From positions 128,001 through 192,000 of the IMG/VR virus record IMGVR_UViG_3300011242_000002: a stretch of 64,000 nucleotides of DNA, one strand, 5' to 3'. A program made the translations under genes and the position numbers. This DNA comes from a virus. Lineage: Duplodnaviria > Caudoviricetes. This document shows positions 1-43,120 of the stretch, piece after piece. The notes below the pieces were generated by a model. It saw only the letters and a list, made by a program, of their open reading frames with translations, was not told the origin of the DNA and made no database searches. Each line of letters opens with the position of its first letter. Within the stretch, counting starts at the first letter, position 1.

Positions 1-1
1 C

Positions 2-3000
2 CGCCTGCGCACGCCAAGCGACTACTGGTTCATCCACTTCTGGCTGTGGCTCGGTAACCACCGGGAAGCGTCGCTGTTCAGCATGCTCGACCATACGCCA
101 AAGCAGCTGGAGAAGATCCACTTGGTAATTGGCAACGTCGGGGCCTACACTGTACTGCGCCTTGACGTGGTTGAGAAATGGCGTGAAGAGATCCTCAAGG
201 CCTCAAAGTCGGGTAATGGGTTAGACAACTTCCGCAAGCACATGCTAAAGTTCATGACCAAGCTGTTCGAGGTGAAAACCGGTGGCCAGGACATTGCGAG
301 CGAAGACGAACAGGCGGAGATCATCAGCCCGGTCGAGCTGCCGCAAGAGGTGCAGGCCAATGAAACTGACGATGCCGACGTGGGCGACGGAACCGACGAC
401 GCCCCTGCCCCGGCTGTGCCGAAAACCATCTTTGGTATCGAGGTGCCCAGTGTCGAGGAAACGCCAACGCCTGCGCCGGCTACAAAGCCAGCGAAGAACC
501 CATCTACTGGTTCAGCGCCTGACGGTGACGAACCCCTTAGCGATATCGACGTCTACGAGCAGCGCAGCTTTAACGACGAGATTGCCGACGATGAGTTCAA
601 CCACGACCGTGACGGACGTCGGGCACCGACCGTTCCCAACAACACCGTGGAAGCCAAACCAGAAGACGGCGTTAACGAGTACATTGAGGCTCTGTCCGAT
701 GCCGGCATGTTAACCGCGGCGGAATACAAGCGCTTTAAGCGTCTGGCTGAACAGTACCGGCAGATCCCGAACCCAATGGGACCGGGGACCCTGCTGGATC
801 TGATGACCATTGACCCGGCGAAGCTGACCAACCTGTCAGGTGGTGAAGCCCCTGATTCGATCAGTATCCTGAACAAGGCGATGTTGTCGACCTGCCTGAA
901 CAACCTCGACAAGAACTACATCGAGCACGTGCTGGAAGCGGATATTGCCAACGTGGTGATGTCGATTCAGAACACCGGAGTGGCGGTTATTGACTACCAG
1001 CGCGAGGAGCGTCAGGACGCGGTCACCCGGTTCGTGGTCTACACCGTACAGGTGCAACCGGTGGGCGGTAAGGTCTCTACCCTGCGTTTTCGTATTCCGA
1101 AGATTGATCCGGACGGCACCACCCTTACCAACAACGTGAAGAGCCGCGTGCGCAAACAGCGTGTCGATATTCCGATCCGTAAGGTCAGCACCGTCAAGGT
1201 GGCGATGACCTCCTACTACGGAAAGATGTTCATGACCCGCTCGGAGCTCGCCAAGTACGACTACGGCCGCTGGCTGGGCAACCGCGTCAACCTGATGTCG
1301 CTCCCCAACCCGAGCGACTCGACCTACGTACCGCCGATCAGCAACCTGGTGATTGGTCGCTACTTCACGCCGTCGGTCTACGTGCCGCACACCTATGCGA
1401 TCATTGCCCAGCGCTATAAAGGTTTTGACTATCAGGGGGTGACGTTCCTGTTCTCCATCAAGCAGGTGAAAGAGCAGGTCGGTGACGAGCTGTGGGATCG
1501 CTACTACAAGAACAAGCTGGTCATCTGCGGCTTTAAGCAGGGCAGTCCGGTGCTGATGGACAACAACGGCAACCTGTACGTAGCAAACGGTGATGCGCTG
1601 GACCCGCTGGGGGATTTCGAATCCTTCCTCGGCCTGGACGTCAGCAAAGCACCGATTGAAACCGTCGAGCTGCAGATCTTCCGCAAGGCAGTACCGGTAG
1701 GGGTGATCCTGGCCTACTACTACGGTCTGTCCACCATGGTGGAGCAGCTGCAGATGCAGGTGCGCTTTGTGCCACGCGGTGAGCGATTGAAGCTGTCGGC
1801 GGATGAACGTGCGGTCACCTTTAACGATGAGGTGCTGGTGTTTAACCGCAGCGATCGCTTAACCGCCATGCTGCTCAACGGCTTTAACTACTACGAGAAA
1901 GAAGTCCAGCGTTTTAGCCGCTACGACTTTGACCGTAAGTCGGTGTACGCCAACCTGCTGGCTTCGGCCAACCTGGGGGTGCGCTGGATTCGTGAACTTG
2001 ACCTGCTGCGAGAGATGTTCATCGATCCGATTACCCGTGACGAGCTCAAGCGGATGAATGCACCAACGCGCTGGGATCTGCTATTGCTGCACGGGGTGCG
2101 GATGCTGTTAAACGATCGCCACCTGAAAGAGACCTCCATGCGCGAACAGCGTATTCGTGGTTCCGAACGCGTGGCCGGGGCGGTGTACAAGGAGTTGGTG
2201 AAATCGGCCCGTCAGCTGAAGACCCGCGCGGCGGCCACAAAGGCTGGGATGGAGATGCACCCGGATGCGGTGTGGTACGAGCTGCTCGACGATACGGCAT
2301 CAACCCCGATCGAAGAGTGCAACCCGATCCACAACATCAAGGACTACTCGATTGTCACCTTTGGCGGCACCGGTGGGCGTACGGCACGGTCGATGACCAA
2401 GCCCACGCGTGAGTTCACCGAGGACAACCTCGGGGTAACCTCTGAATCCTCCGTGGATAACTCGGATGTAGGCTATGCGGCACACATGACCTCGGATCCG
2501 TTGATTACCGATCTGCGTGGTAACGCCCAGGCGGCCACCGACGAAACCAACCCGAACCATCTGGTGTCCTTTACCGCAATGCTCAACCCGGGCTCGGATC
2601 GTGACTCCCCGCAGCGTGTGATGTTTACCTCGGTGCAGCACTCGCAGGCAATGTATGCGGTAGGGTATAAAACCACACCGTATCGCACTGGGGCCGAGCG
2701 GATGGTCGCACACCGCGTCAGTAAAATGTTCTCGTATGCGGCAGAAGCGGATGGGGTGGTAAAAGAAGTCAGTGATAAGCACCTGCTGGCGGACTACGGT
2801 GATCGGATGGTGGGCGTGGAGATCGGTACGCGCTTTGGCACCGCATCGGGGACCACCTACGTGCACGAGATCATCACTGACCTTAAGCCGGGCGATAGCT
2901 TCCGTAAAGGGGCGATTTTGGTGTGGAACCGCAACTACTTTGAGCGCGACTTCATGGAACCCGATCAGGTCTCCTGGAAAGGCGGGGTAATTGTTAACAC

Positions 3001-3736
3001 CGCGTTGATGGAAGACCAGTTCACCTATGAAGACTCCTCGATGATCTATCGTGGTGTGGGCAAGGACCTGGCAACCTTTACCGGCAAGCCAATCCCCATC
3101 ATCGTGGACTTCAACCAGGAGGTGCGTAACCTGATCACGGTGGGGGAAGAGGTTGAGCAGGAAACAATCTTATGTACCTTAGAACACCAGGTCAGCGCCC
3201 AGCTGGGGCTGGACGACGACGGGAGCTACGACAGCCTGCGCGTCTTTAGCCATGATAACCCGAAAGCGAAAGTGGTCGGGCGGGTGGCCAAGATCGACGT
3301 GCTGTATCGGGGAAACATCGACGACATGTCGGAGTCCCTGGCGGTAATTGCGAACCGCTCGGATCGGGAACGGCGTAAGCTGAACCGAGCCCTGCGGGGG
3401 AACGAGGCCGAAACCGGTGAGGTGATGGGTGGGCTGCGCATCGGTGGCGATACCCTGGAGCCGAAGCAGGCGGTGATCTACGTGTATCTGATCACGCCGA
3501 TGCCTACCATCATTGGTGACAAAGGGGTGTTTGCTAACCAGATGAAGTCGACCTTTGGCTACATCTACGACGAGCAGATCCTAACGGTCAGCGGGAAAGA
3601 GGTCGGAGCGATCTTCTCCAACCTGTCGATTGCGAACCGTATGGTGACCTCACCGTACATCATCGGCGCCATGAACTCTTACCTCGATACGGTCACGAAA
3701 AACGCCTTCAAGCTCTGGAAGTCAATGAGAGGATAA
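2..3736 (+). CDS. Virion multisubunit RNA polymerase beta subunit (phiKZ gp178-like), 5'-truncated by the window
   Basis: Frame is open from position 2, upstream of the ATG at 83. C-terminal beta-like motifs (TYEDS, IGDKGVFANQMKS). Lies upstream of a vRNAP small subunit and the head protease, as in phiKZ/SPN3US. Confidence 0.88.
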   Translation, partial: RLRTPSDYWFIHFWLWLGNHREASLFSMLDHTPKQLEKIHLVIGNVGAYTVLRLDVVEKWREEILKASKSGNGLDNFRKHMLKFMTKLFEVKTGGQDIASEDEQAEIISPVELPQEVQANETDDADVGDGTDDAPAPAVPKTIFGIEVPSVEETPTPAPATKPAKNPSTGSAPDGDEPLSDIDVYEQRSFNDEIADDEFNHDRDGRRAPTVPNNTVEAKPEDGVNEYIEALSDAGMLTAAEYKRFKRLAEQYRQIPNPMGPGTLLDLMTIDPAKLTNLSGGEAPDSISILNKAMLSTCLNNLDKNYIEHVLEADIANVVMSIQNTGVAVIDYQREERQDAVTRFVVYTVQVQPVGGKVSTLRFRIPKIDPDGTTLTNNVKSRVRKQRVDIPIRKVSTVKVAMTSYYGKMFMTRSELAKYDYGRWLGNRVNLMSLPNPSDSTYVPPISNLVIGRYFTPSVYVPHTYAIIAQRYKGFDYQGVTFLFSIKQVKEQVGDELWDRYYKNKLVICGFKQGSPVLMDNNGNLYVANGDALDPLGDFESFLGLDVSKAPIETVELQIFRKAVPVGVILAYYYGLSTMVEQLQMQVRFVPRGERLKLSADERAVTFNDEVLVFNRSDRLTAMLLNGFNYYEKEVQRFSRYDFDRKSVYANLLASANLGVRWIRELDLLREMFIDPITRDELKRMNAPTRWDLLLLHGVRMLLNDRHLKETSMREQRIRGSERVAGAVYKELVKSARQLKTRAAATKAGMEMHPDAVWYELLDDTASTPIEECNPIHNIKDYSIVTFGGTGGRTARSMTKPTREFTEDNLGVTSESSVDNSDVGYAAHMTSDPLITDLRGNAQAATDETNPNHLVSFTAMLNPGSDRDSPQRVMFTSVQHSQAMYAVGYKTTPYRTGAERMVAHRVSKMFSYAAEADGVVKEVSDKHLLADYGDRMVGVEIGTRFGTASGTTYVHEIITDLKPGDSFRKGAILVWNRNYFERDFMEPDQVSWKGGVIVNTALMEDQFTYEDSSMIYRGVGKDLATFTGKPIPIIVDFNQEVRNLITVGEEVEQETILCTLEHQVSAQLGLDDDGSYDSLRVFSHDNPKAKVVGRVAKIDVLYRGNIDDMSESLAVIANRSDRERRKLNRALRGNEAETGEVMGGLRIGGDTLEPKQAVIYVYLITPMPTIIGDKGVFANQMKSTFGYIYDEQILTVSGKEVGAIFSNLSIANRMVTSPYIIGAMNSYLDTVTKNAFKLWKSMRG

Positions 3737-21009: not shown

Positions 21010-23190
21010 ATGATACTGTATGGGAATGACTGGTGTAAGTACCGTGTTATGCCACACGTACACTATGAAACCAAAAACGACAGCTTCCTCAAGATTGCCA
21101 AGAAGCTGCACGACATGGGGGTCAAGAACTGTCTGTTCATGCTCTCCTTGTTTAACAAGTCACTGATCGACGTTGACCCCTACGACCCGAACTTGACCGA
21201 TGAACAGAAGCAGGCGATCGCCATTGAGTGCAGCATCAACTTCTGGTACTTCATCCGTGAAGTCATCCGTATTCGTGTCCCTGGTCAGGCGGAAGGTATT
21301 CGCTACATCGCCAACCGTGGCAACATGGCGTTGAGCTGGCTGTACCTGGCACACATCGACGTCTTCCTGATCCAGCCGCGTCAGACCGGGAAGTCAGTAT
21401 CGACGGACTGCATCATGCTGTGGCTGATGTACTTCGGCAGCCGGCAGAACAACATCTCCCTGATCACTAAGGGCGACCTGCGGACTGAGAACATCAAGCG
21501 TCTAAAAGCGATGCGTGACTTCCTGCCAGGCTATCTGATCGTGCGTGACCGTAAAGACCCGGATAACTCCGAGTGGCTGGGCTACGCCGCGTTGAAAAAC
21601 GTCTATAAGGCCGCGATTGCCCAAGGTAACGAAACCGCAGCCAACAACCTGGGGCGTGGTATTACCACGGCCACCATCCACATCGATGAAGGCCCGTTCC
21701 TGTCGTTTGTTGACATCACCATTCCGGCGGCGCTTAACGCCACGACAACCGCGCGCCGCTATGCTGAGATGAACCAGACGCCACACGGCAACATCTTTAC
21801 CACCACGGCCGGTCGTCGTGACTCCCGTGAAGGTAAGTACTTCTACGGTATTCTGCAGGACGCGGCAGTGTGGAACGAAATGTTCTACGACTGTGTCGAT
21901 TTCAAAGACCTGTCGGAAACCATCATGAACAACTCCGGCTCCGAGGCGCCGTCGGTGAACATCACCATGTCGCACCGCCAGCTGGGGTACACGGACGAAT
22001 GGTTGCGTAAAACCATCGCCCAGAACAAGAACGACAAGGAGTCGGCAGAACGTGACTTCCTCAACCGCTGGACTTCAGGTAACCTGACGTCTCCTCTGTC
22101 GATTGCGCTTAACGAAAAGATCAACGCCTCGCAGCGTGAAGTGGTGTACACCGAAATCACCAAGCAGAAGTACATCGTGCGCTGGTACATCTCGAAGGGG
22201 GATATTGACTACAACCGTACGCATACCCACTACACCATCGGGATGGATACCTCGGATGCCACCTCAACCGGGGACAGCAACACCATCGTCATTCGCGATA
22301 TTCGCGACATGGGGGTGGTGGCGACCATGAACTTCCGCAACACCAACACGATCAACATCCAGAACATGGTCGCTGATCTGCTGGAGCAGCACCCGAACTC
22401 CACGTTCATTCCTGAACGTAACCGGGCTCAGTCGTTGATTGACCATCTGCTGATTGAACTGCCGCGTCGTGGTATTGATCCGTTTAAGCGCATCTATAAC
22501 ACGCTGGTTGACGATCAGACGGTACGTCGCTCCGACTTCATGGAGTTGATCAACACGCCGCTCGGTGCGCGCACGCAGGAGTTCTACGACTCCAAGCGCA
22601 CCTGCTTTGGTTTCTGGACCGGCGCCCAGTCGCGTCCAATTCTTTACGGTCGTATTCTGCAGGAGTGTGCGAAGCACACCGGCTACGTCACCCGCGATAA
22701 GGAACTCATTGATCAGATCATGGGTCTGGTGGCAAAGAACGGCCGCGTGGACCACAAGTCCGGTGGACACGACGACCTGGTCATCGCCTGGCTGCTAGGC
22801 TACTGGTTCATTACCGATGCCCGCCATCACGACTGGTACGGTATTGACACCCGGAAGGTTATGTGTGTCACCGAACAGGCACAGGGTTACTCCATTGAGG
22901 AGCAGGCGTGGCTGGACTACCAGGCCCGCATGCGTGACGAACTCACCAGCGTGATGGAGCAGCTGAAGAACAGCACCAACCCAATGATCATCAGCCGGTT
23001 GGAGCAGCAGCTGCGTAACCTGAAAACCCAGATCGTCGATATGGGTAATGATGCTATGACGGTAGATCAGTTGTTACTGGAAGCGAAAGAGGCACGTCAG
23101 CTGAAAGCGCGCACCGGTCGTCAACTGACCCCGCCGCAAAACATCGGCGCCCGACCCAAGTCGCGGCGCTTTAACCACGTGTACTATTAA
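21010..23190 (+). CDS. terL: Terminase large subunit
   Basis: Walker A PRQTGKS, Walker B IHIDE, coupling motif TTTA, nuclease motifs IGMD and GHDDLVIA. Confidence 0.93.
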   Translation: MILYGNDWCKYRVMPHVHYETKNDSFLKIAKKLHDMGVKNCLFMLSLFNKSLIDVDPYDPNLTDEQKQAIAIECSINFWYFIREVIRIRVPGQAEGIRYIANRGNMALSWLYLAHIDVFLIQPRQTGKSVSTDCIMLWLMYFGSRQNNISLITKGDLRTENIKRLKAMRDFLPGYLIVRDRKDPDNSEWLGYAALKNVYKAAIAQGNETAANNLGRGITTATIHIDEGPFLSFVDITIPAALNATTTARRYAEMNQTPHGNIFTTTAGRRDSREGKYFYGILQDAAVWNEMFYDCVDFKDLSETIMNNSGSEAPSVNITMSHRQLGYTDEWLRKTIAQNKNDKESAERDFLNRWTSGNLTSPLSIALNEKINASQREVVYTEITKQKYIVRWYISKGDIDYNRTHTHYTIGMDTSDATSTGDSNTIVIRDIRDMGVVATMNFRNTNTINIQNMVADLLEQHPNSTFIPERNRAQSLIDHLLIELPRRGIDPFKRIYNTLVDDQTVRRSDFMELINTPLGARTQEFYDSKRTCFGFWTGAQSRPILYGRILQECAKHTGYVTRDKELIDQIMGLVAKNGRVDHKSGGHDDLVIAWLLGYWFITDARHHDWYGIDTRKVMCVTEQAQGYSIEEQAWLDYQARMRDELTSVMEQLKNSTNPMIISRLEQQLRNLKTQIVDMGNDAMTVDQLLLEAKEARQLKARTGRQLTPPQNIGARPKSRRFNHVYY

Positions 23191-23569: not shown

Positions 23570-23609
23570 CATAAAGGAGAGGAGCTTGCGCCCCTCTCCT
23601 TTTATGCCG
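23570..23609. terminator. Bidirectional terminator with TTATGCCG
   Basis: AAGGAGAGG...CCTCTCCTT stem between convergent genes. Confidence 0.75.
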
Positions 23610-23614
23610 ATTTA

Positions 23615-24580
23615 TTATTTAAACGATTTAATGATCCATTCTTCCAGACCACGCGCAATACCGATGAGCTGGGTGTGGATTCTGTAGCCGTAATGACCGA
23701 GATTGCCGTTCACGATCTCGGCGTAACCCCACTCCCATATAGCGTCGGCATCATCACCAAACTTATCAAAGTAATCCCACAGCCCGACGTTATGCCACAC
23801 GTCTTCGGTGAGTTCATCAACGTCGGTTGCTTTGGCAAGTAATGACTTGATCAGCGCGACCGCTTTACCGTATTCATCCTTGGTCAATGCCGGTAACTTA
23901 CCGCCTTTCTTATCTTCTTTATCCAACTTAATATTGGCGCAGGGTTCGGTCCAGACGTCACGGCCATATTTAGCTCTGAGTTGCTCAACGATACCTTCAC
24001 GTTCCTCACGATCGGGTTCGTCACCCCAGCGACGGATGTAGGGTTCGATCTCTTTCCACAGTTTAATGTGGTCAGCAGTCGCTTTCTTAAATTCGGTGAC
24101 TACCTCATTGAAGTATTTCTCCAGCGCTTTACTGACCGTAGCGAAGTCTTTGCCCTCGAAGAGTTTGGAGATCATGCCGTTGCTTACTTCTTTCTCAACG
24201 GATTCTTTGCCGTTAAGCCAGGCTGCGGTGTAGGTGCTGTTGACCTTTTGCTCGGCCACCTTGATGTCTTTCAACGCCGGGCTGTTCTTGGCCAGCATCA
24301 GTTTCTTAAAGCCGACGTAGCCCGCCGTGGCTAAAGCTGCCACACCGACGATGGCGAGACCGATGGCTTCGTTACCCACACCCGGCTGCACGTGTTTGCC
24401 GTAGCGAGCTTCCAGCCCTCGCATGATCAGCTGATGGGCGGGATTTTCTGCCAAGGCTTCCACCCCGACACCTTCGATCTGCTTAGAGTAGGCCGTTAGC
24501 AAATCACGGTCCTGTTTAAGCCGGCGACCTTCGTGTACAAAGTTGACGAAGGCTTGCGGCTCCTTATCAAAAATAGACAT
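23615..24580 (-). CDS. Protease-processed head protein paralog with a transmembrane-like segment
   Basis: GVE, GLE and GNE sites in the N-terminal region, followed by AIGLAIVGVAALATAGYVGF; C-terminal LEEWIIKSFK matches the paralogs. Confidence 0.7.
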   Translation of the reverse strand: MSIFDKEPQAFVNFVHEGRRLKQDRDLLTAYSKQIEGVGVEALAENPAHQLIMRGLEARYGKHVQPGVGNEAIGLAIVGVAALATAGYVGFKKLMLAKNSPALKDIKVAEQKVNSTYTAAWLNGKESVEKEVSNGMISKLFEGKDFATVSKALEKYFNEVVTEFKKATADHIKLWKEIEPYIRRWGDEPDREEREGIVEQLRAKYGRDVWTEPCANIKLDKEDKKGGKLPALTKDEYGKAVALIKSLLAKATDVDELTEDVWHNVGLWDYFDKFGDDADAIWEWGYAEIVNGNLGHYGYRIHTQLIGIARGLEEWIIKSFK

Positions 24581-24729: not shown

Positions 24730-25707
24730 TTACTTCAGCGCGGTGATGATCATCTTTTCCATTTGAACCAACACATTTTTCATGAAGTCGGCACATTTGG
24801 CATACAGCTCTTCACCACCTCCCAAGACCGCTTCCCAATGCAGGCAATGATAATAAAGTTTATCAACCTCATTAAGCTCGACAATCCCGAGATGGTCTAG
24901 ATCGGAATCACCAACGGCATCAAGATACGGCTCTTCAAAATCAATAAGCTCGTTATAGTACCAGTTAACGATACGCGCCATCTCATCCCCGATGGCAACG
25001 CACTGTTCCTTAGAGAGCTTAATATCAGCGGCGCCGTTGCCGGGTTTGATTTCCACACGAGTGTTTAAGCTATCCAATTTAGGTCTCAGGATAGCAAACT
25101 GCTCAGCCGCGTATTTCTTCAGCGCCTCGTCGTCGTCACCGAGTTTATTTAACTGATCCACCACTTTGTGGGTCTCGGTGATGTACGCTTTGATGTTTTT
25201 GGCGTAATCATTGATGGCGACGTCGTACAGCTTGAAAGCTGCAGCTGGGGTGGAGGACACCTCTTCCGCAGACTTAACGTCGCCGACAACTTTAGCCAGT
25301 TCAACGGTACTAACTGATTTGCCTGTCTCATCCTTGTCAGAATACCAGCTGCGGTTACCGTAGGTTTTCTTGATTGCGCTTTCCAGATCAACAGCCGCCT
25401 TTTTAAGCTCGGCCGGCAGTTTACCCTTGAAGCGTTTCTTTAATCCACTGATCCCGGTCTTCAGTTTATCAACAAGCTCGCGTAAGCCTTCGATACCTGA
25501 ACCCACCTTGAAATGATCCGGATAACGAGTGGAAAGACCGCTTTCGATTAACGCACCTGATACGGTATTTAGTGACTCCACCCCACAGCCGTTGGCGTGA
25601 ACTAAAAACCGTTCAATAAGATCAACGTCCGCCTGGAGTGATTCTACTCCGCCAGAGGCTGAGATGATGATTCCCAGTTTTTCTAACTCATGGTTCATTT
25701 CAACCAC
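24730..25707 (-). CDS. Protease-processed head protein paralog
   Basis: HANGCGVES...GL..RYP..F..GSGIEG propeptide; MEKMIITALK C-terminus. Confidence 0.75.
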   Translation of the reverse strand: MVEMNHELEKLGIIISASGGVESLQADVDLIERFLVHANGCGVESLNTVSGALIESGLSTRYPDHFKVGSGIEGLRELVDKLKTGISGLKKRFKGKLPAELKKAAVDLESAIKKTYGNRSWYSDKDETGKSVSTVELAKVVGDVKSAEEVSSTPAAAFKLYDVAINDYAKNIKAYITETHKVVDQLNKLGDDDEALKKYAAEQFAILRPKLDSLNTRVEIKPGNGAADIKLSKEQCVAIGDEMARIVNWYYNELIDFEEPYLDAVGDSDLDHLGIVELNEVDKLYYHCLHWEAVLGGGEELYAKCADFMKNVLVQMEKMIITALK

Positions 25708-25710
25708 CTT

Positions 25711-26696: not shown

Positions 26697-27716
26697 TTAA
26701 TAAGCTTTGGTGGTAACCGTGGTGCTGCTACGTACGTAGTCGTCACCACTAAAAGTTGTTTCCAGGTAATCCACACCACCTGGAATAACGATGCGCGCAC
26801 CCACGTAACCATTGGCACGGGCGACAGTGCGAACGAACTCACGCATGGACTGCAAGTTTTCGGCGGTGCGGTATTCGGGTAGCAGATAGAGTTCTTCGAC
26901 CACCATAACCTTCATGCGGCCGTCAATGCTGTCCTGGAACGACATCACACCTACAATCCCGCGCATGCACTGACCCAGCATAATGTTGCGGTCCATCACG
27001 GCACCCCGGGCCTTAATCACCCCGGGGATGTTCAGCGTTTTCCTGTCTGCTTCCAAACGCTCCATGTCCGCATACTGCAGCAGGGTGATAGCCGCACGGG
27101 TTAGCTGACGGGATTTGGCAAGTCCTTTAGGCGAGTGGGCTGACCACTGCAGCGTTGACGCCACGGTGTTAGCAAACTCAAACACCGCACCCCAGTCGAC
27201 CACGCCGAGCTTATCGTTCTCGGCATTGGTTTTCGCGATGATCTCCGCCATCCCTTCTAACCCACCGGCCAGATGCTCCAGCGATGCCAGGCTATTATCT
27301 TTAAGACGGTCCGGGTAGAGCTCGTTCAGATCGGCAACCAGCTCCAGGTGACCCGGGTGATCATTCAGGGCTTCATTCCCTTCACTCATCAGCTGCACGT
27401 GAGTGCGGATAGCTTGGGCACGTTCACGCGACTCAACCTCAAGGTCAAGCATCTGCGCGTGCTGCAGCTCGGCACCGGTCATCGGCGCTGCAATATCTTT
27501 ATCCATCGCCTTCAGTAAACTGCCCAGGCCTTCGATGCCAGCGTCAAGGGTAAAGAGGTCGGGGTACTTCTCAGCCATCTCGGCAGCGATCTCAACGGCA
27601 GGGGTGGTGCTTAATGTTTCCAAGCCACACCCCTGGGCATCGGTCATGAACTGACGCAGCTTTTCAGCATCGTCAATCATCTGCTGGCTTTTAACGTAGG
27701 GTGACATTCCGGTCAT
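26697..27716 (-). CDS. Head-propeptide-bearing protein with a C-terminal GNAT acetyltransferase-like domain
   Basis: Two propeptide units, then GIVGVMSF...VEELYLLPEYR...ARANGY..ARI, a GNAT motif A/B pattern. Confidence 0.65.
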   Translation of the reverse strand: MTGMSPYVKSQQMIDDAEKLRQFMTDAQGCGLETLSTTPAVEIAAEMAEKYPDLFTLDAGIEGLGSLLKAMDKDIAAPMTGAELQHAQMLDLEVESRERAQAIRTHVQLMSEGNEALNDHPGHLELVADLNELYPDRLKDNSLASLEHLAGGLEGMAEIIAKTNAENDKLGVVDWGAVFEFANTVASTLQWSAHSPKGLAKSRQLTRAAITLLQYADMERLEADRKTLNIPGVIKARGAVMDRNIMLGQCMRGIVGVMSFQDSIDGRMKVMVVEELYLLPEYRTAENLQSMREFVRTVARANGYVGARIVIPGGVDYLETTFSGDDYVRSSTTVTTKAY

Positions 27717-27725
27717 GGCGCGACC

Positions 27726-28697
27726 TCATTTAACGGAGTTAACGATAAGCTTCTCAAGCTCTTTGACCGCCTGCACGCAGTAGTCGGCTGCGCGTTTAGC
27801 GCTGCGATCAACCGGCATGTAGTAGTCTTCCCAGAACGTGCGAATCCAAACCTCTCTTTGCAGGTCTTTGTTCTCGATATCGTCGTAGGCACCTGCATCA
27901 GAGATGCCGCAGTCCTCGATCACGTCTGACGCATTATTGGCCAGGTGTACGCAACGGGCCATCACTTCTTTAAGCAACTTGCCGATAGCCTGTGCCTGCT
28001 CCACGGTCAACCCGTCGATGGTTTCGCCTTTGCCGCCGCCAAGCTTAGGCAGCTCTTCATCGAAGGCCTGACTGGCGCGTTTTGGTAGCGCGGTAACAAT
28101 GTCGCTGATCAGTTTATCAACGCCATCCTCTTTTACCTTTAATGCACGCTTATAGAACGGTTCGGCTTTACCCCAATAAGCGTTAACGTTGCTGATGATC
28201 TTTTTCATGTGATCATCCACAGTTTTCAACAACGCTTTTACCTGACGATCCACATCGGCGTAGCTGTTGATGTCACCGACCAGATTGGCCAGTGAGGCCA
28301 CGGAAACCGGTTTGCCAATAGCGGACTTGTCTTTATACCAGTTGCTGTTGGCATAGGTGTTGTTAATTTCGGTGGCGGTTTCATGGGCAATTTTGTCAAT
28401 GAACGGTTTGGCTTTCCCGCGCGCCATTTTCTTCAGGCCCTGGATCCCCTGCTTGAGCTTGTCAGCCAATGCGCCCAACCCTTCCAGACCGTCACCGACG
28501 TTGAAATAGCCAGGATAGCGGGCAGCCAGGCCGGTCTCGATCAGCTTGCCGGTGGCGGTGTCAAGCGACTCCAACCCGCAGCCGTTGGCATGGGCGATAA
28601 ACTGGGTCAACAGCTCAACGTCTTTTTCAAGGCCTTCAAGGGCGTGACCGAGGAACATGTTGTCAACAGCGGTGGTGTTAATTAAAGACATAATCAA
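27726..28697 (-). CDS. Protease-processed head protein paralog
   Basis: ALEGLE, HANGCGLES, GL.ARYP, GDGLEG; LEKLIVNSVK C-terminus. Confidence 0.75.
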   Translation of the reverse strand: MIMSLINTTAVDNMFLGHALEGLEKDVELLTQFIAHANGCGLESLDTATGKLIETGLAARYPGYFNVGDGLEGLGALADKLKQGIQGLKKMARGKAKPFIDKIAHETATEINNTYANSNWYKDKSAIGKPVSVASLANLVGDINSYADVDRQVKALLKTVDDHMKKIISNVNAYWGKAEPFYKRALKVKEDGVDKLISDIVTALPKRASQAFDEELPKLGGGKGETIDGLTVEQAQAIGKLLKEVMARCVHLANNASDVIEDCGISDAGAYDDIENKDLQREVWIRTFWEDYYMPVDRSAKRAADYCVQAVKELEKLIVNSVK

Positions 28698-28700
28698 TCC

Positions 28701-29999
28701 TTAGGATGAGTAGTGTTTCATGGATAAAGCACGCAGGATAATGTACAGGAACAATCCAACGCGAACGGTCGCCACGGTGGCGGGGGTGCGAATGCCGGTG
28801 GCAATGCTGACCATATCATCGCCGATCTCACGCATGCGCAGCAGGCTTTCGTTGCTGGTGCGGCTTGAACGATAGGCGCCCTTCATTTTCGACACCACGT
28901 CCGGGACGTCGTTGAGTTTCAGGTTCTTTGACGACACGTATTCGAACAGGTGCTGAATGGTTTCCTTGAGCAGGCTGTCGATCATCCCCGACTTATCGTA
29001 GCGGTAGTTCGATGAGATATAACGCAGGGTGGCTTCCAAGGGTGCCGGCGGGATAGTGGGGTTGGATTTGGTGATAATCACCGCCAGTTCCGGACGATAC
29101 CAGTCTGACTCCACCCCGACGATGTTCTGTACGTAGCGCAGGTACACCGACACGATACGCTCCACGTCGCGGATGTGCTTCACGCCGTCAAGCTCTACCG
29201 AGGACGAGCCTTCGGTAATCATCGCCTCTTTCAGCTTCACCTGGTGAAAAACGTTGTTGATCGAGTTGATGACATCACGCAGGCGGTCCTGGACGTCACC
29301 CACCATATACACCACCGCTTTATCATCGGTCATGCGCACGTAGGTCTCGTAGTGGATCCCGCTGCCCTGTGTAATTATTGACTTTGCTCTGGCATCTATG
29401 AGGGCCTGCCAGCTACCGTATTGCTTCAGGTCAAATTTCTTTGACAGCTGACGGTAGGTTTCCATCGCCACCGACTTGTTGGCCGGGTACGGATAGTCGT
29501 GGCTGAGGATCGAAGACAGGTTCTTGTAGTGGAAGATCCTGACCACGTCCATCTTGCCCTGCTCAATCTCCGCGCTGTTAAGGTGTTTGGAGTGGTGCAG
29601 CAGGTGCAGCAGCACCGGCATGGACAGGTTAAACAAATCACCGGTAACGTGGAATTTCGGGTTCACGAAGGCGGTGTTGTGCACATCGTTGGTCAGATCA
29701 ACCTCGTCGGTGTCCAGGATGGTATCAAACCACTCGTTACGGTCAGCAATGGTGAACTTGATCGGATAAACGCCAATCAGGTTGCCGCCAAAGAAGCTGA
29801 TGTGATCCTGGTTCTTGTTGCGAAAGCGACTGGCGTACATCCCCAGCGCACGCACCAGGTTACGGTCGGCCACCAGGTGTGGGCAGTTCTTTAAGAACGC
29901 CTCTTTGATGGTCATGCCGTTACCGGGTTTAAAAGGTAGGGCTTCGAGTCCGGCTGACAGGTACTGTGCCTCGTCAGTGAACATAGTGTGATCAAACAT
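28701..29999 (-). CDS. Conserved phiKZ-like virion protein
   Basis: KNQDHISFFGGNLIG motif; N-terminal AGLE cleavage site; first gene of the paralog operon. Confidence 0.6.
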   Translation of the reverse strand: MFDHTMFTDEAQYLSAGLEALPFKPGNGMTIKEAFLKNCPHLVADRNLVRALGMYASRFRNKNQDHISFFGGNLIGVYPIKFTIADRNEWFDTILDTDEVDLTNDVHNTAFVNPKFHVTGDLFNLSMPVLLHLLHHSKHLNSAEIEQGKMDVVRIFHYKNLSSILSHDYPYPANKSVAMETYRQLSKKFDLKQYGSWQALIDARAKSIITQGSGIHYETYVRMTDDKAVVYMVGDVQDRLRDVINSINNVFHQVKLKEAMITEGSSSVELDGVKHIRDVERIVSVYLRYVQNIVGVESDWYRPELAVIITKSNPTIPPAPLEATLRYISSNYRYDKSGMIDSLLKETIQHLFEYVSSKNLKLNDVPDVVSKMKGAYRSSRTSNESLLRMREIGDDMVSIATGIRTPATVATVRVGLFLYIILRALSMKHYSS

Positions 30000-41539: not shown

Positions 41540-42943
41540 TTACTCTTCGTTACCTTTGTCGGCATCATCAGCGGGAGCAGCTTTACCGCCCACTGCTTTC
41601 TTCGCAACGGTCAGGGCAGCGCCACAGACGTTGTTTACCGCAGCTGGTACGGCCAGTACCAGCTGGTTAACACCGTCCATCATGTCACCTGGCAGCTTGG
41701 CCAGCTGGTACACGATGGTTTCCACGCCTTTCTCACTCTGCTTGTTAGCCTGGTCAGACTGGATACTCGCCTTGACGTGACGATCGACCGACTTGAGGAA
41801 GTTAGTACCCCATCTGGTGTTCTTACGAATGATGATGGCCGCATCACACACCTTGATGATAGACTGGGCGATCTTCACTGCGTCCTGTGGTGTCAGGTTA
41901 GCGGAGAATTCAACCTTACCAGAAAGCTTACCGTCATCAGGACGCTTGATGGTCGCACGTGCCTTACCGATCGCTTTGATGTGGTTACACACTTCCTGCC
42001 AGGAATCACCGCCGGTAGTTTTGTATTGCAGGTCAAACACCGCATAGCCGCCGAGCATGACTTCGGTGCGCTTAACGGTGACTTCTGGTGTGTCCTTCAC
42101 GGAAACAGTTGCGCCCGGGAATGCTGGCGGCTCCAGAGCGTCAACCAGTTTCTTCGCATCAGCAACCGTGGTGACGGCTTTCATGCGACTCAGTGCAGTA
42201 ACCACTTTACCGTTACCGTACCCACCAAGGTTGTCCATGAAGTTACCGGTCAGCGAGGAGATGACTTTCTCAAAGCCTTCGAGATCGCTTACCAGGTTGG
42301 TAGACGGTTGGCCGGACTTGGTCACCAGGAATTTATTACTAAAGGTGACTTGGGTGGAACCGGATTTACCCGCCGCGGCTTTAATTACGCCTTCCGCGCT
42401 GGCACGCATACGACCAGCTTTCAGTACCACGCGCTCGGTGTACTTGCTGATGCTCTTGCTCACCTGCTGCAGAGCGCTGAAGATACGCAGACCCAAAGAG
42501 GTCTTGGTGCTGTTCAGCGCTTCAAGACCTGCGGTGAAGAAAGCTTTAACCTCTTCTTCGTTATCAAAGCCTTCCAAACCACCGCCGATGGTAGAGACGG
42601 ACTGACCGTGGGTCAGCAGCACGTCAGACAGCTGGCCTTTCAGCAGCGCGGCGGTAGCCGGCGTCAGGCCTGCTTCGATGAAATGTTCCAGTGAAGCGGC
42701 CAGGGTATCAACGCGTTCTTGTTCCTGCGACAGCGCGGTCATGCGAGCAGACTCGTCAATCACCGCAGATTCTGCTTCTAAAACGGCCGCATCTTCCAGT
42801 GCCACGTTGCGCTCAACGACTAACACGTTGGCTTCTTCAACCGGAACCGGCTCGACGTAAACCTGATCCACAGGCACCGGGATAGCATCGGTTTGATCTT
42901 CAAATGCTTCCAGACCAATGCCTAAAATGTAGTTATTTAACAT
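41540..42943 (-). CDS. Internal head (inner body-type) protein with an acidic propeptide
   Basis: GLE, ALE, SLE, GLE, GLE sites in the Glu-rich first ~140 aa; LGGYAVF motif. Confidence 0.7.
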   Translation of the reverse strand: MLNNYILGIGLEAFEDQTDAIPVPVDQVYVEPVPVEEANVLVVERNVALEDAAVLEAESAVIDESARMTALSQEQERVDTLAASLEHFIEAGLTPATAALLKGQLSDVLLTHGQSVSTIGGGLEGFDNEEEVKAFFTAGLEALNSTKTSLGLRIFSALQQVSKSISKYTERVVLKAGRMRASAEGVIKAAAGKSGSTQVTFSNKFLVTKSGQPSTNLVSDLEGFEKVISSLTGNFMDNLGGYGNGKVVTALSRMKAVTTVADAKKLVDALEPPAFPGATVSVKDTPEVTVKRTEVMLGGYAVFDLQYKTTGGDSWQEVCNHIKAIGKARATIKRPDDGKLSGKVEFSANLTPQDAVKIAQSIIKVCDAAIIIRKNTRWGTNFLKSVDRHVKASIQSDQANKQSEKGVETIVYQLAKLPGDMMDGVNQLVLAVPAAVNNVCGAALTVAKKAVGGKAAPADDADKGNEE

Positions 42944-43120
42944 ACGAGCTCCATTATAAAAAAGTGAATGTAACGTTACGATTCATACAATAACGCCAGC
43001 ACCCGCGGGCGCTACAGCTGAGTAATACTATGTAATAAACTCCTCCTCCTCTTACCCCTGGTTGGTGAGTGGTCGGAGGGTTTATGCCGATCGGGGTATG
43101 TATTGAAATAATTAACAGAA

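Follow-up and report, generated by a model that had tools for sequence, protein, structure and literature searches.

A duplicated leader from head-protein-like genes joined to a probable GNAT-like domain in a jumbo-phage paralog array

The locus

The window analysed here is a 64,000-nucleotide stretch of DNA, bases 128001-192000 of the complete 273,301-bp genome, with direct terminal repeats, of an uncultured virus (IMG/VR record IMGVR_UViG_3300011242_000002). The closest cultured relatives of this virus are the jumbo phages Salmonella SA002, Erwinia pEa_SNUABM_37 and the Agricanvirus group (Ea35-70, RAY), of which RAY is a nucleus-forming phage (PMC10299810). On the minus strand of the window, between the large terminase gene (21010-23190, plus strand) and a conserved phrog_2921 gene (28701-29999, minus strand), lie five tandem paralogs, in map order A, B, C, T and E. 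The subject of this work is the fourth of them, T, whose product carries the leader of the paralog family twice and, in place of the usual body, a C-terminal domain that probably has a GNAT-like fold. The features of T, all on the minus strand, are the following (aa, amino acids; CoA, coenzyme A).

26697..27716, minus strand: target gene T (protein P0002), 339 aa, predicted pro-protein of 37.2 kDa
27724..27727, minus strand: GAGG ribosome-binding site of T, located 7 nt upstream of the ATG; it overlaps the preceding paralog's stop codon
27483..27689, minus strand: leader copy 1, aa 10-78, common to the array paralogs; holds G-L-E33 and G-I-E62
27435..27482, minus strand: linker between the leader copies, aa 79-94, placed by alignment
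27213..27434, minus strand: leader copy 2, degraded, aa ~95-168, with a 9-residue insertion; holds G-N-E115, S-L-E147 and G-L-E154
27255..27263, minus strand: predicted last maturation site G152-L153-E154, cut after E154; the last [SAG]-x-E in T, kept in the ortholog P0003, and a match to G[LIVMN]E[SAG][LFIM]
26700..27194, minus strand: probable GNAT-like C-terminal domain, aa ~175-339, assigned from ESM, Foldseek and Rac-like profile matches
26805..26903, minus strand: core beta4-alpha3 segment, aa 272-304, where conservation is highest and where Rac-like GNATs match
26853..26870, minus strand: degenerate CoA-pyrophosphate loop R283-T-A-E-N-L288, in place of R-x-x-G-x-G/A, located by alignments to a solved GNAT and to Rac

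T is a real gene under selection

T is an open reading frame (ORF) that lies 9 nt downstream of the preceding paralog. T differs from its ortholog in L006, a 98%-identical relative, by 17 synonymous and 4 non-synonymous changes. The non-synonymous ones are all at residues 77-118, one of them at aa 102, in leader copy 2 just past the linker, and residues 155-339 show 10 synonymous differences and no non-synonymous ones. Selection on T is purifying. A more distant ortholog, P0003 (338 aa, 52% identical), has the same architecture as T and retains both leaders, the final G-L-E-G-M site and the C-terminal domain's entire core. The GC content of T and its GC content at third codon positions (GC3) match those of the neighbouring genes, and there is therefore no sign that the C-terminal domain was recently acquired.

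The family is very rare, with three sequences (P0002, P0001 and P0003) in ~15 billion proteins. When 1.84 billion representatives were searched with HMMER, P0003 was the sole diverged full-length relative; the other matches were the near-identical P0001, a paralog matching by its leader only (P0004) and a spurious one, P0005. The latter is a 1,227-aa ankyrin-repeat protein with five matches to leader copy 2 through its repeat L-E-L-A-Q-Y-L-V-E-K-Y-P-D-M-L, and we took these as chance and not homology. Two metagenome scans recovered no genomic context for P0003, and a viral-contig scan gave only a 99% relative. P0003 and an ordinary paralog, P0026, each come from a 25,136-bp contig, which hints that they share one array.

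Both the extreme rarity of the family and the recombinogenic character of the array, of which the 98%-identical relative lacks paralog B, would fit the idea that recombination produced T as a non-functional chimera, or that its ORF is spurious. However, the substitution pattern of T, the retention of its architecture, both leaders and every key motif in an ortholog that has diverged to 52% identity, the proper ribosome-binding site, the operon spacing and the absence of any compositional anomaly effectively refute this idea, and we regard it as extremely improbable. By all these sequence criteria, T is a real gene under selection and not a recent arrival. In addition, every string quoted in the first-pass annotation of this locus (GCGLE, KYPD, AGIEG, EGNE, LYPD, SLE, GGLEG, VEELYLLPEYR, RTAEN and ARANGY) is present in it.

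The leader occurs twice

The first leader copy of T matches a family leader profile built without T with 50.9 bits and an E-value of 6e-18 (hmmsearch), and the leader motif of the paralog family (G-x-G-L-E-S-L ... Y-P ... G-x-G-L-E-G-L) is found in T. Similarity to the rest of the array is confined to this module: in BLASTP, T is 34-42% identical to the other paralogs over ~60 residues of leader only, and the matches of copy 1 to PHROGs cover aa 11-77 only (phrog_6709, E 9.4e-10; phrog_10834, E 3.4e-6). AlphaFold gives helices in copy 1, with predicted local distance difference test (pLDDT) scores of ~70-80.

The second copy is weak in T alone (5 bits; self-BLAST E 1e-3) and clear in P0003 (17.5 bits, E 1.5e-7). 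Aligned with the family leader profile by hhalign, residues 86-170 match over 63 columns with a probability of 94.9% and an E-value of 4.5e-8. Moreover, P0003 contains two stretches that match phrog_6709 and two that match phrog_10834. The duplicated leader proposed in the first-pass annotation is thus confirmed by the profile matches of both copies. The duplication is real and, as judged from the sequences, predates the split between T and P0003.

The same annotation described the leader as a portable tag. One part of this description holds, namely that the leader is separable: it is duplicated in T, and in RAY gp185 (L007:7035-7475; phrog_10834) the same module is detached from its usual body. 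The latter protein, 146 aa long, consists of the leader and a short acidic tail, and carries eight [SAG]-x-E sites along its whole length. Unlike T, it has no cargo domain, its tail being rich in such sites instead, and it could be a propeptide-only or scaffold-like protein. In a RAY lysate, its mass-spectrometric coverage was 66% (PMC6690015). The other part of the description, portability, was over-generalised, as a leader-only search of 5.8 billion proteins returned only ordinary bodies of 321-329 aa and no other cargo. Within the whole genome, the leader profile likewise gave nothing significant outside the array. With the leader found solely on ordinary bodies and in the array, the evidence for modularity consists of T and RAY gp185.

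Putative cut sites of T are confined to the leader region

The head protease of phiKZ cuts after S/A/G-X-E, a motif reportedly described by Thomas in 2012. In T, nine [SAG]-x-E sites fall within residues 1-154 (4.1 expected, p 0.004) and none within residues 155-339 (2.3 expected); in P0003, the split is likewise 11 versus 0. A cut after E154 would divide the protein into a propeptide of 154 aa, 16.8 kDa and isoelectric point (pI) 4.5, and a mature fragment of 185 aa, 20.4 kDa and pI 8.0 that comprises the GNAT-like domain and one N-terminal helix.

The motif G[LIVMN]E[SAG][LFIM], which the E154 site matches, has 40 occurrences in the six-frame ORFs of the whole genome. Ten ORFs carry at least two copies: the five genes of the array, four PF12699 (phiKZ_IP) paralogs out of the seven in this genome, and one ORF of 1,553 aa. 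In those array and phiKZ_IP genes, all copies are within the first ~155 residues. The seven PF12699 paralogs lie at 251797-261335 of the genome (plus strand) and at 41543-42982 of the window (minus strand), and most of them begin with G-L-E-[AG]-F near residues 15-25 and have a further G-x-E motif no later than about residue 150. Separately, in the 1,553-aa ORF (window 1-3733, plus strand; genome 127075-131733) the motif copies are at residues 210 and 285, and this ORF may encode a further protease-processed virion protein.

PF12699 proteins of phiKZ and SPN3US are abundant internal head and ejection proteins with long propeptides, which the prohead protease removes by several cuts after Glu (PMC5694885, PMC10052503). 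The cuts follow A-X-E in SPN3US, and SLE-13 and SQE-122 in phiKZ (PMC5694885), while the SPN3US propeptides are 111-254 aa long (PMC10052503). Truncated SPN3US gp47 is still packaged, and this implies targeting by its propeptide (PMC5694885, PMC10052503). The described proteins, namely the PF12699 proteins phiKZ gp93-95, gp162 and gp163 and SPN3US gp53 and gp54, together with SPN3US gp47, resemble the array, with its predicted propeptides and cut sites, in forming tandem paralogs near head genes, with long propeptides and several Glu-ending cut sites. In the genome studied here, the seven PF12699 paralogs share the motif G-L-E-[AGS]-[FL] with the array leaders, and the three best matches of the leader profile outside the array are phiKZ_IP paralogs. 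On the other hand, neither T nor its paralogs match PF12699, and kinship is hinted at by language-model features only (the cluster nearest to paralog E carries PF12699 in 12% of its members). A further difference is that no described member of these groups has an enzyme-like domain in place of its body.

The C-terminal domain probably has a GNAT-like fold

Residues 161-339 of T have no similarity to the paralog body (hhalign 0.2%), and the C-terminal ~180 residues are therefore a replacement. According to ESM Atlas features, residues 165-339 score 0.94 to viral clusters carrying PF00583 (Acetyltransf_1). The ESM Atlas structure model gives template-modelling (TM) scores of 0.56-0.64 to GNAT clusters over 127-138 residues, spanning residues 184-339. 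AlphaFold was run twice, on the full-length protein and on the C-terminal domain, each time from a 3-sequence alignment. When the domain model was submitted to Foldseek, all ~32 chains listed among the top 50 were of GNAT fold (E 5e-3 to 4e-2), and the small-domain matches of the full-length model were also GNATs. In addition, the order of secondary-structure elements in the domain model fits a GNAT (alpha1-alpha2, the beta2-beta4 sheet, alpha3, beta5). Finally, a profile combining T with the family of a phage protein, phiITL-1 gp48, had as its best PDB match 8yv7, a thialysine N-acetyltransferase (E 1.5), aligned at beta4-alpha3. Taken together, these models and matches make a GNAT-like fold probable.

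The glycine-rich loop is degenerate and the domain may be kin to Rac

At the position of the CoA-pyrophosphate loop of motif A (R-x-x-G-x-G/A; Q/R-x-x-G-x-G/A in the GNAT superfamily), T has RTAEN. As the first-pass annotation had it, the loop is degenerate: R283 is kept and both Gly positions are substituted (E286 and L288). The corresponding sequence of P0003 is R-T-E-E-N-L, and in the alignment with 8yv7 the segment R-s-a-e-n-L falls on R-R-M-G-L-A.

A weak tblastn match (39% over 54 residues in BLASTP; database E 0.09, pairwise 9e-9) led to phiITL-1 gp48 (L009:1237-1719). This protein, annotated as hypothetical, matches phrog_3986 at E 2e-38 and so belongs to the same family as LUZ19 gp28, known as Rac. 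Another protein annotated as hypothetical, IME-DE1 gp41 (L020:1240-1665), was placed in the Rac family via the combined phiITL-1 and IME-DE1 set, which hhalign matches to Rac with 98%. Several relatives encoded at the Rac position pass the Pfam GNAT cut-off. For the T family, hhalign gave 45% against the bona fide Rac set, 78% against all Rac-like sequences and 86.5% against the phiITL-1 branch. We also built three Rac-like hidden Markov models (HMMs) from LUZ19 Rac and its MR5, Lidtsur, SnaR1, IME-DE1 and phiITL-1 relatives and searched them against the 2,325 six-frame ORFs of the genome. T was the top match in its own genome for all three (E 1.4e-3 to 1.8e-4), the runner-up having an E-value of at least 0.14. 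The match is mainly to a core of ~40 residues, and P0003 scores poorly (E 4.1). Kinship between the T domain and Rac-like proteins is thus plausible but unproven.

Rac-like proteins are small phage GNATs that share with T the core Y-x-L-P-x-Y-R ... R-x-x-x-R ... G. They differ in several respects. Rac-like proteins are free-standing and 139-160 aa long, whereas T is fused to a leader and encoded in a jumbo-phage head-gene array. Their genes lie just upstream of a small structural gene and a head-tail adaptor gene in T7-like phages (Autographiviridae), a setting that T does not share; the gene follows that for RNA polymerase in MR5, Lidtsur, SnaR1, Axy21 and LUZ19 (Krylovirinae/Bonnellvirus members) and an exonuclease gene in phiITL-1 and IME-DE1. 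T itself is below every threshold against phrog_3986 and PF00583. Moreover, the study that described Rac nowhere presents Rac-like proteins as virion proteins (PMC7552054).

Rac shuts down host transcription via acetylation-dependent cleavage of RNA polymerase alpha, and for this phenotype it needs its predicted acetyl-CoA pocket QYV...(A/V)R (PMC7552054). In the hhalign alignment, T has L-Y-L...M-R at this pocket, so that Tyr and Arg are kept, Gln is replaced by Leu, and the loop has a 3-residue insertion. With the loop degenerate and the pocket altered, catalysis by the T domain is doubtful, the balance tilting somewhat against it.

An alternative reading, in which T is packaged and processed, is that its GNAT-fold domain is non-enzymatic, being either an internal component of the head (structural or associated with DNA) or a binding decoy delivered to the cell. 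Non-catalytic GNAT-like folds exist, for example in chimallin, and Goslar chimallin is among the weak structural matches of the domain (Z 5.9). Besides the replacement of both loop glycines, shared with P0003, this reading draws on the basic character of the predicted mature domain, a trait it has in common with internal head proteins, and on the regular paralogs that occupy the same slot with no enzymatic signature. However, T keeps the core Y-x-L-P-x-Y-R and R292 relative to Rac, whose pocket is needed, and has a conserved Tyr317 at the position expected for the motif-B tyrosine. Furthermore, the phiITL-1 branch of Rac-like proteins, with the loop R-S-A-A-N-L, also does without these glycines and is nevertheless maintained across phages. 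On balance, we consider a non-enzymatic role rather unlikely.

The paralog array

The other members of the array and its end are as follows.

23573..23602, minus strand: terminator-like hairpin with a 13-bp stem, closing the array after A
23615..24580, minus strand: paralog A, 321 aa, its leader followed directly by a hydrophobic segment
24730..25707, minus strand: paralog B, 325 aa, not present in the 98%-identical relative L006
25711..26685, minus strand: paralog C, 324 aa, 75% identical to SA002_1840
27726..28697, minus strand: paralog E, 323 aa, ortholog of RAY gp186 and pEa_SNUABM_37_00197

Because the intergenic gaps are short (3-11 nt, with the exception of 149 nt before A), T has its own ribosome-binding site and a terminator follows A, the array looks like a single transcription unit in which T is co-transcribed with its paralogs. 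The number of copies differs between phages: RAY has one full member plus the 146-aa leader-only gene, pEa_SNUABM_37 has three and SA002 has four. L006 lacks exactly paralog B, and its flanks overlap by 33 bp at the junction (window 24763-25710 versus L006:7658-7690). As genes B and C have identical 3' ends and the overlap lies there, the loss resembles unequal crossing-over. Array copy number therefore varies even among near-identical phages.

In paralog A, the leader runs straight into a hydrophobic stretch of ~20 residues and then K-K, at a place where its sister paralogs have a basic amphipathic helix. The same stretch is present in SA002_1820 and pEa_SNUABM_37_00195.

Two family members, RAY gp185 and gp186, were found by mass spectrometry in crude lysate (PMC6690015), and this detection is the single experimental basis for regarding the array products, by analogy, as head proteins. 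There is a second alternative. T may not be packaged at all, and may instead be a cytoplasmic protein made late, with leader-like helices that bind to the paralogs or to the prohead core during assembly; it could then acetylate head or scaffold proteins or regulate assembly. Co-transcription of T with the array is compatible with this, the detected relatives come from crude lysate and not from purified virions, and, as none of 5.8 billion proteins has the leader on any other cargo, a general targeting role for it is unproven. However, the Glu-ending motifs of T are strictly within the N-terminal 154 residues, and the motif is common to the phiKZ_IP paralogs. Moreover, duplication of the leader is easier to understand as lengthening of a propeptide, given the 111-254 aa of the SPN3US propeptides (PMC10052503). 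We therefore judge the alternative of a non-packaged T unlikely.

A pro-protein that may be packaged and processed

The reading that we prefer is that T encodes a double-leader pro-protein that is packaged, cut and ejected as a GNAT-like cargo distantly related to Rac. The pro-protein would be made together with the head-protein-like paralogs of the array. Its acidic, helical first 154 residues, made up of the two leader copies, would act as a capsid-targeting propeptide and bring it into the prohead core. There, the phage prohead protease would cut the propeptide into small pieces after G-x-E at E33, E62, E115 and E154. The basic 185-residue GNAT-like mature domain would stay in the filled head, enter the cell with the DNA and, at the very outset of infection, modify a host protein or at least bind to it. 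Each of these events (packaging, cleavage, ejection and catalysis) is inferred, and for the reading as a whole we see a chance that falls just short of even.

The logic is that of T4 Alt and of the T4 internal proteins with a capsid-targeting sequence: an N-terminal propeptide targets a host-modifying enzyme to the prohead core, the prohead protease makes its cut behind a Glu, and the mature enzyme leaves the head together with the DNA to act at time zero (PMC5694885). The likeness is in the proposed logic, and the two proteins have no sequence relationship. Alt is an ADP-ribosyltransferase with a 6-residue N-terminal and a C-terminal propeptide, whereas the putative cargo of T is GNAT-like and its predicted propeptide, derived from a duplicated leader, is ~154 residues long.

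Several findings weigh against the preferred reading. As regards processing, the ordinary paralogs carry [SAG]-x-E sites along their full length, bodies included, so that absence of sites is no general mark of mature domains. The prohead protease gene was not located in this genome (no match to PF03420, the T4 gp21 protease). The phage is uncultured, and the RAY mass spectrometry was done on crude lysate and not on purified particles. As regards the cargo, the loss of both loop glycines argues against normal acetyl-CoA binding. Pfam, at E-values up to 10, gave no match for the full protein, the C-terminal 174 residues or P0003, and sequence searches of PHROGs and PDB with the C-terminal domain found nothing, including no match to phrog_3986 at E up to 10. 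Confidence is low in both AlphaFold models, where pLDDT is ~50 in the domain and below 50 over much of it, and every Foldseek E-value is above 1e-3. Finally, a search of PDB representatives that did not use Foldseek (VIA wide) was dominated by helical hairpins.

Some of these findings would also be expected if the C-terminal domain were unrelated to GNATs, that is, a new small alpha/beta domain whose GNAT signals came from low-confidence models and short motif matches. The lack of any match in Pfam, PHROGs and PDB sequences, the low pLDDT and the restriction of the Rac-like match to ~40 residues, poorly reproduced in P0003, all suit this explanation. Yet several partly independent lines (ESM, Foldseek, 8yv7 and the Rac-like profiles) converge on GNAT and on no other fold, which makes an unrelated domain quite improbable. 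The domain is not filed as a GNAT family member, because it matches no curated profile and lacks the glycines of motif A.

The first-pass annotation had proposed that a GNAT-like domain replaced the usual body. Replacement stands, and most of the evidence for the new domain favours GNAT, but no curated GNAT profile matches it. The structure prediction suggested as a check had a similar outcome, in that the matches are mostly GNATs but the models behind them and the Foldseek E-values are weak. Overall, the observation made at this locus is confirmed, and its earlier interpretation is partly supported.

Implications

The ejection proteins packed by giant phages amount to tens of megadaltons, and what they do and by what rules they are loaded is mostly unknown. 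In T, a leader recognisable as that of the family is combined with a foreign, enzyme-like domain, which makes T a clean natural test case. If the leader suffices for packaging and is removed at G-x-E, it would define a capsid-targeting signal for this phage group, one that would help to load cargo into phage heads in laboratory strains. The cargo, in turn, would add acetylation to phage time-zero chemistry, beside the ADP-ribosylation carried out by T4 Alt. Should the domain be inactive, T would represent a GNAT fold re-used as an internal head component.

A bolder possibility is that a phage of the nucleus-forming type captured a Rac-like acetyltransferase on a duplicated internal-head-protein propeptide, carries it pre-loaded in the capsid and injects it with the DNA, disabling a host target such as RNA polymerase before phage expression begins. 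We consider this scenario unlikely. PF00583 has no match in the whole genome, and hence no other GNAT was found there as a source copy. Jumbo phages with their own RNA polymerases are known to encode homologs of host-transcription takeover factors, GNATs among them (review, PMC13282480). A literature search for packaged or leader-fused acetyltransferases gave nothing relevant. If the injected Rac-like reading were true, T would be a natural demonstration that the propeptides of giant phages are transferable capsid-loading signals and, to our knowledge, the first phage ejection protein with an acetyltransferase. The phenotypes to look for, as suggested by the weak link to Rac, are host transcription shut-off and the integrity of RNA polymerase alpha.

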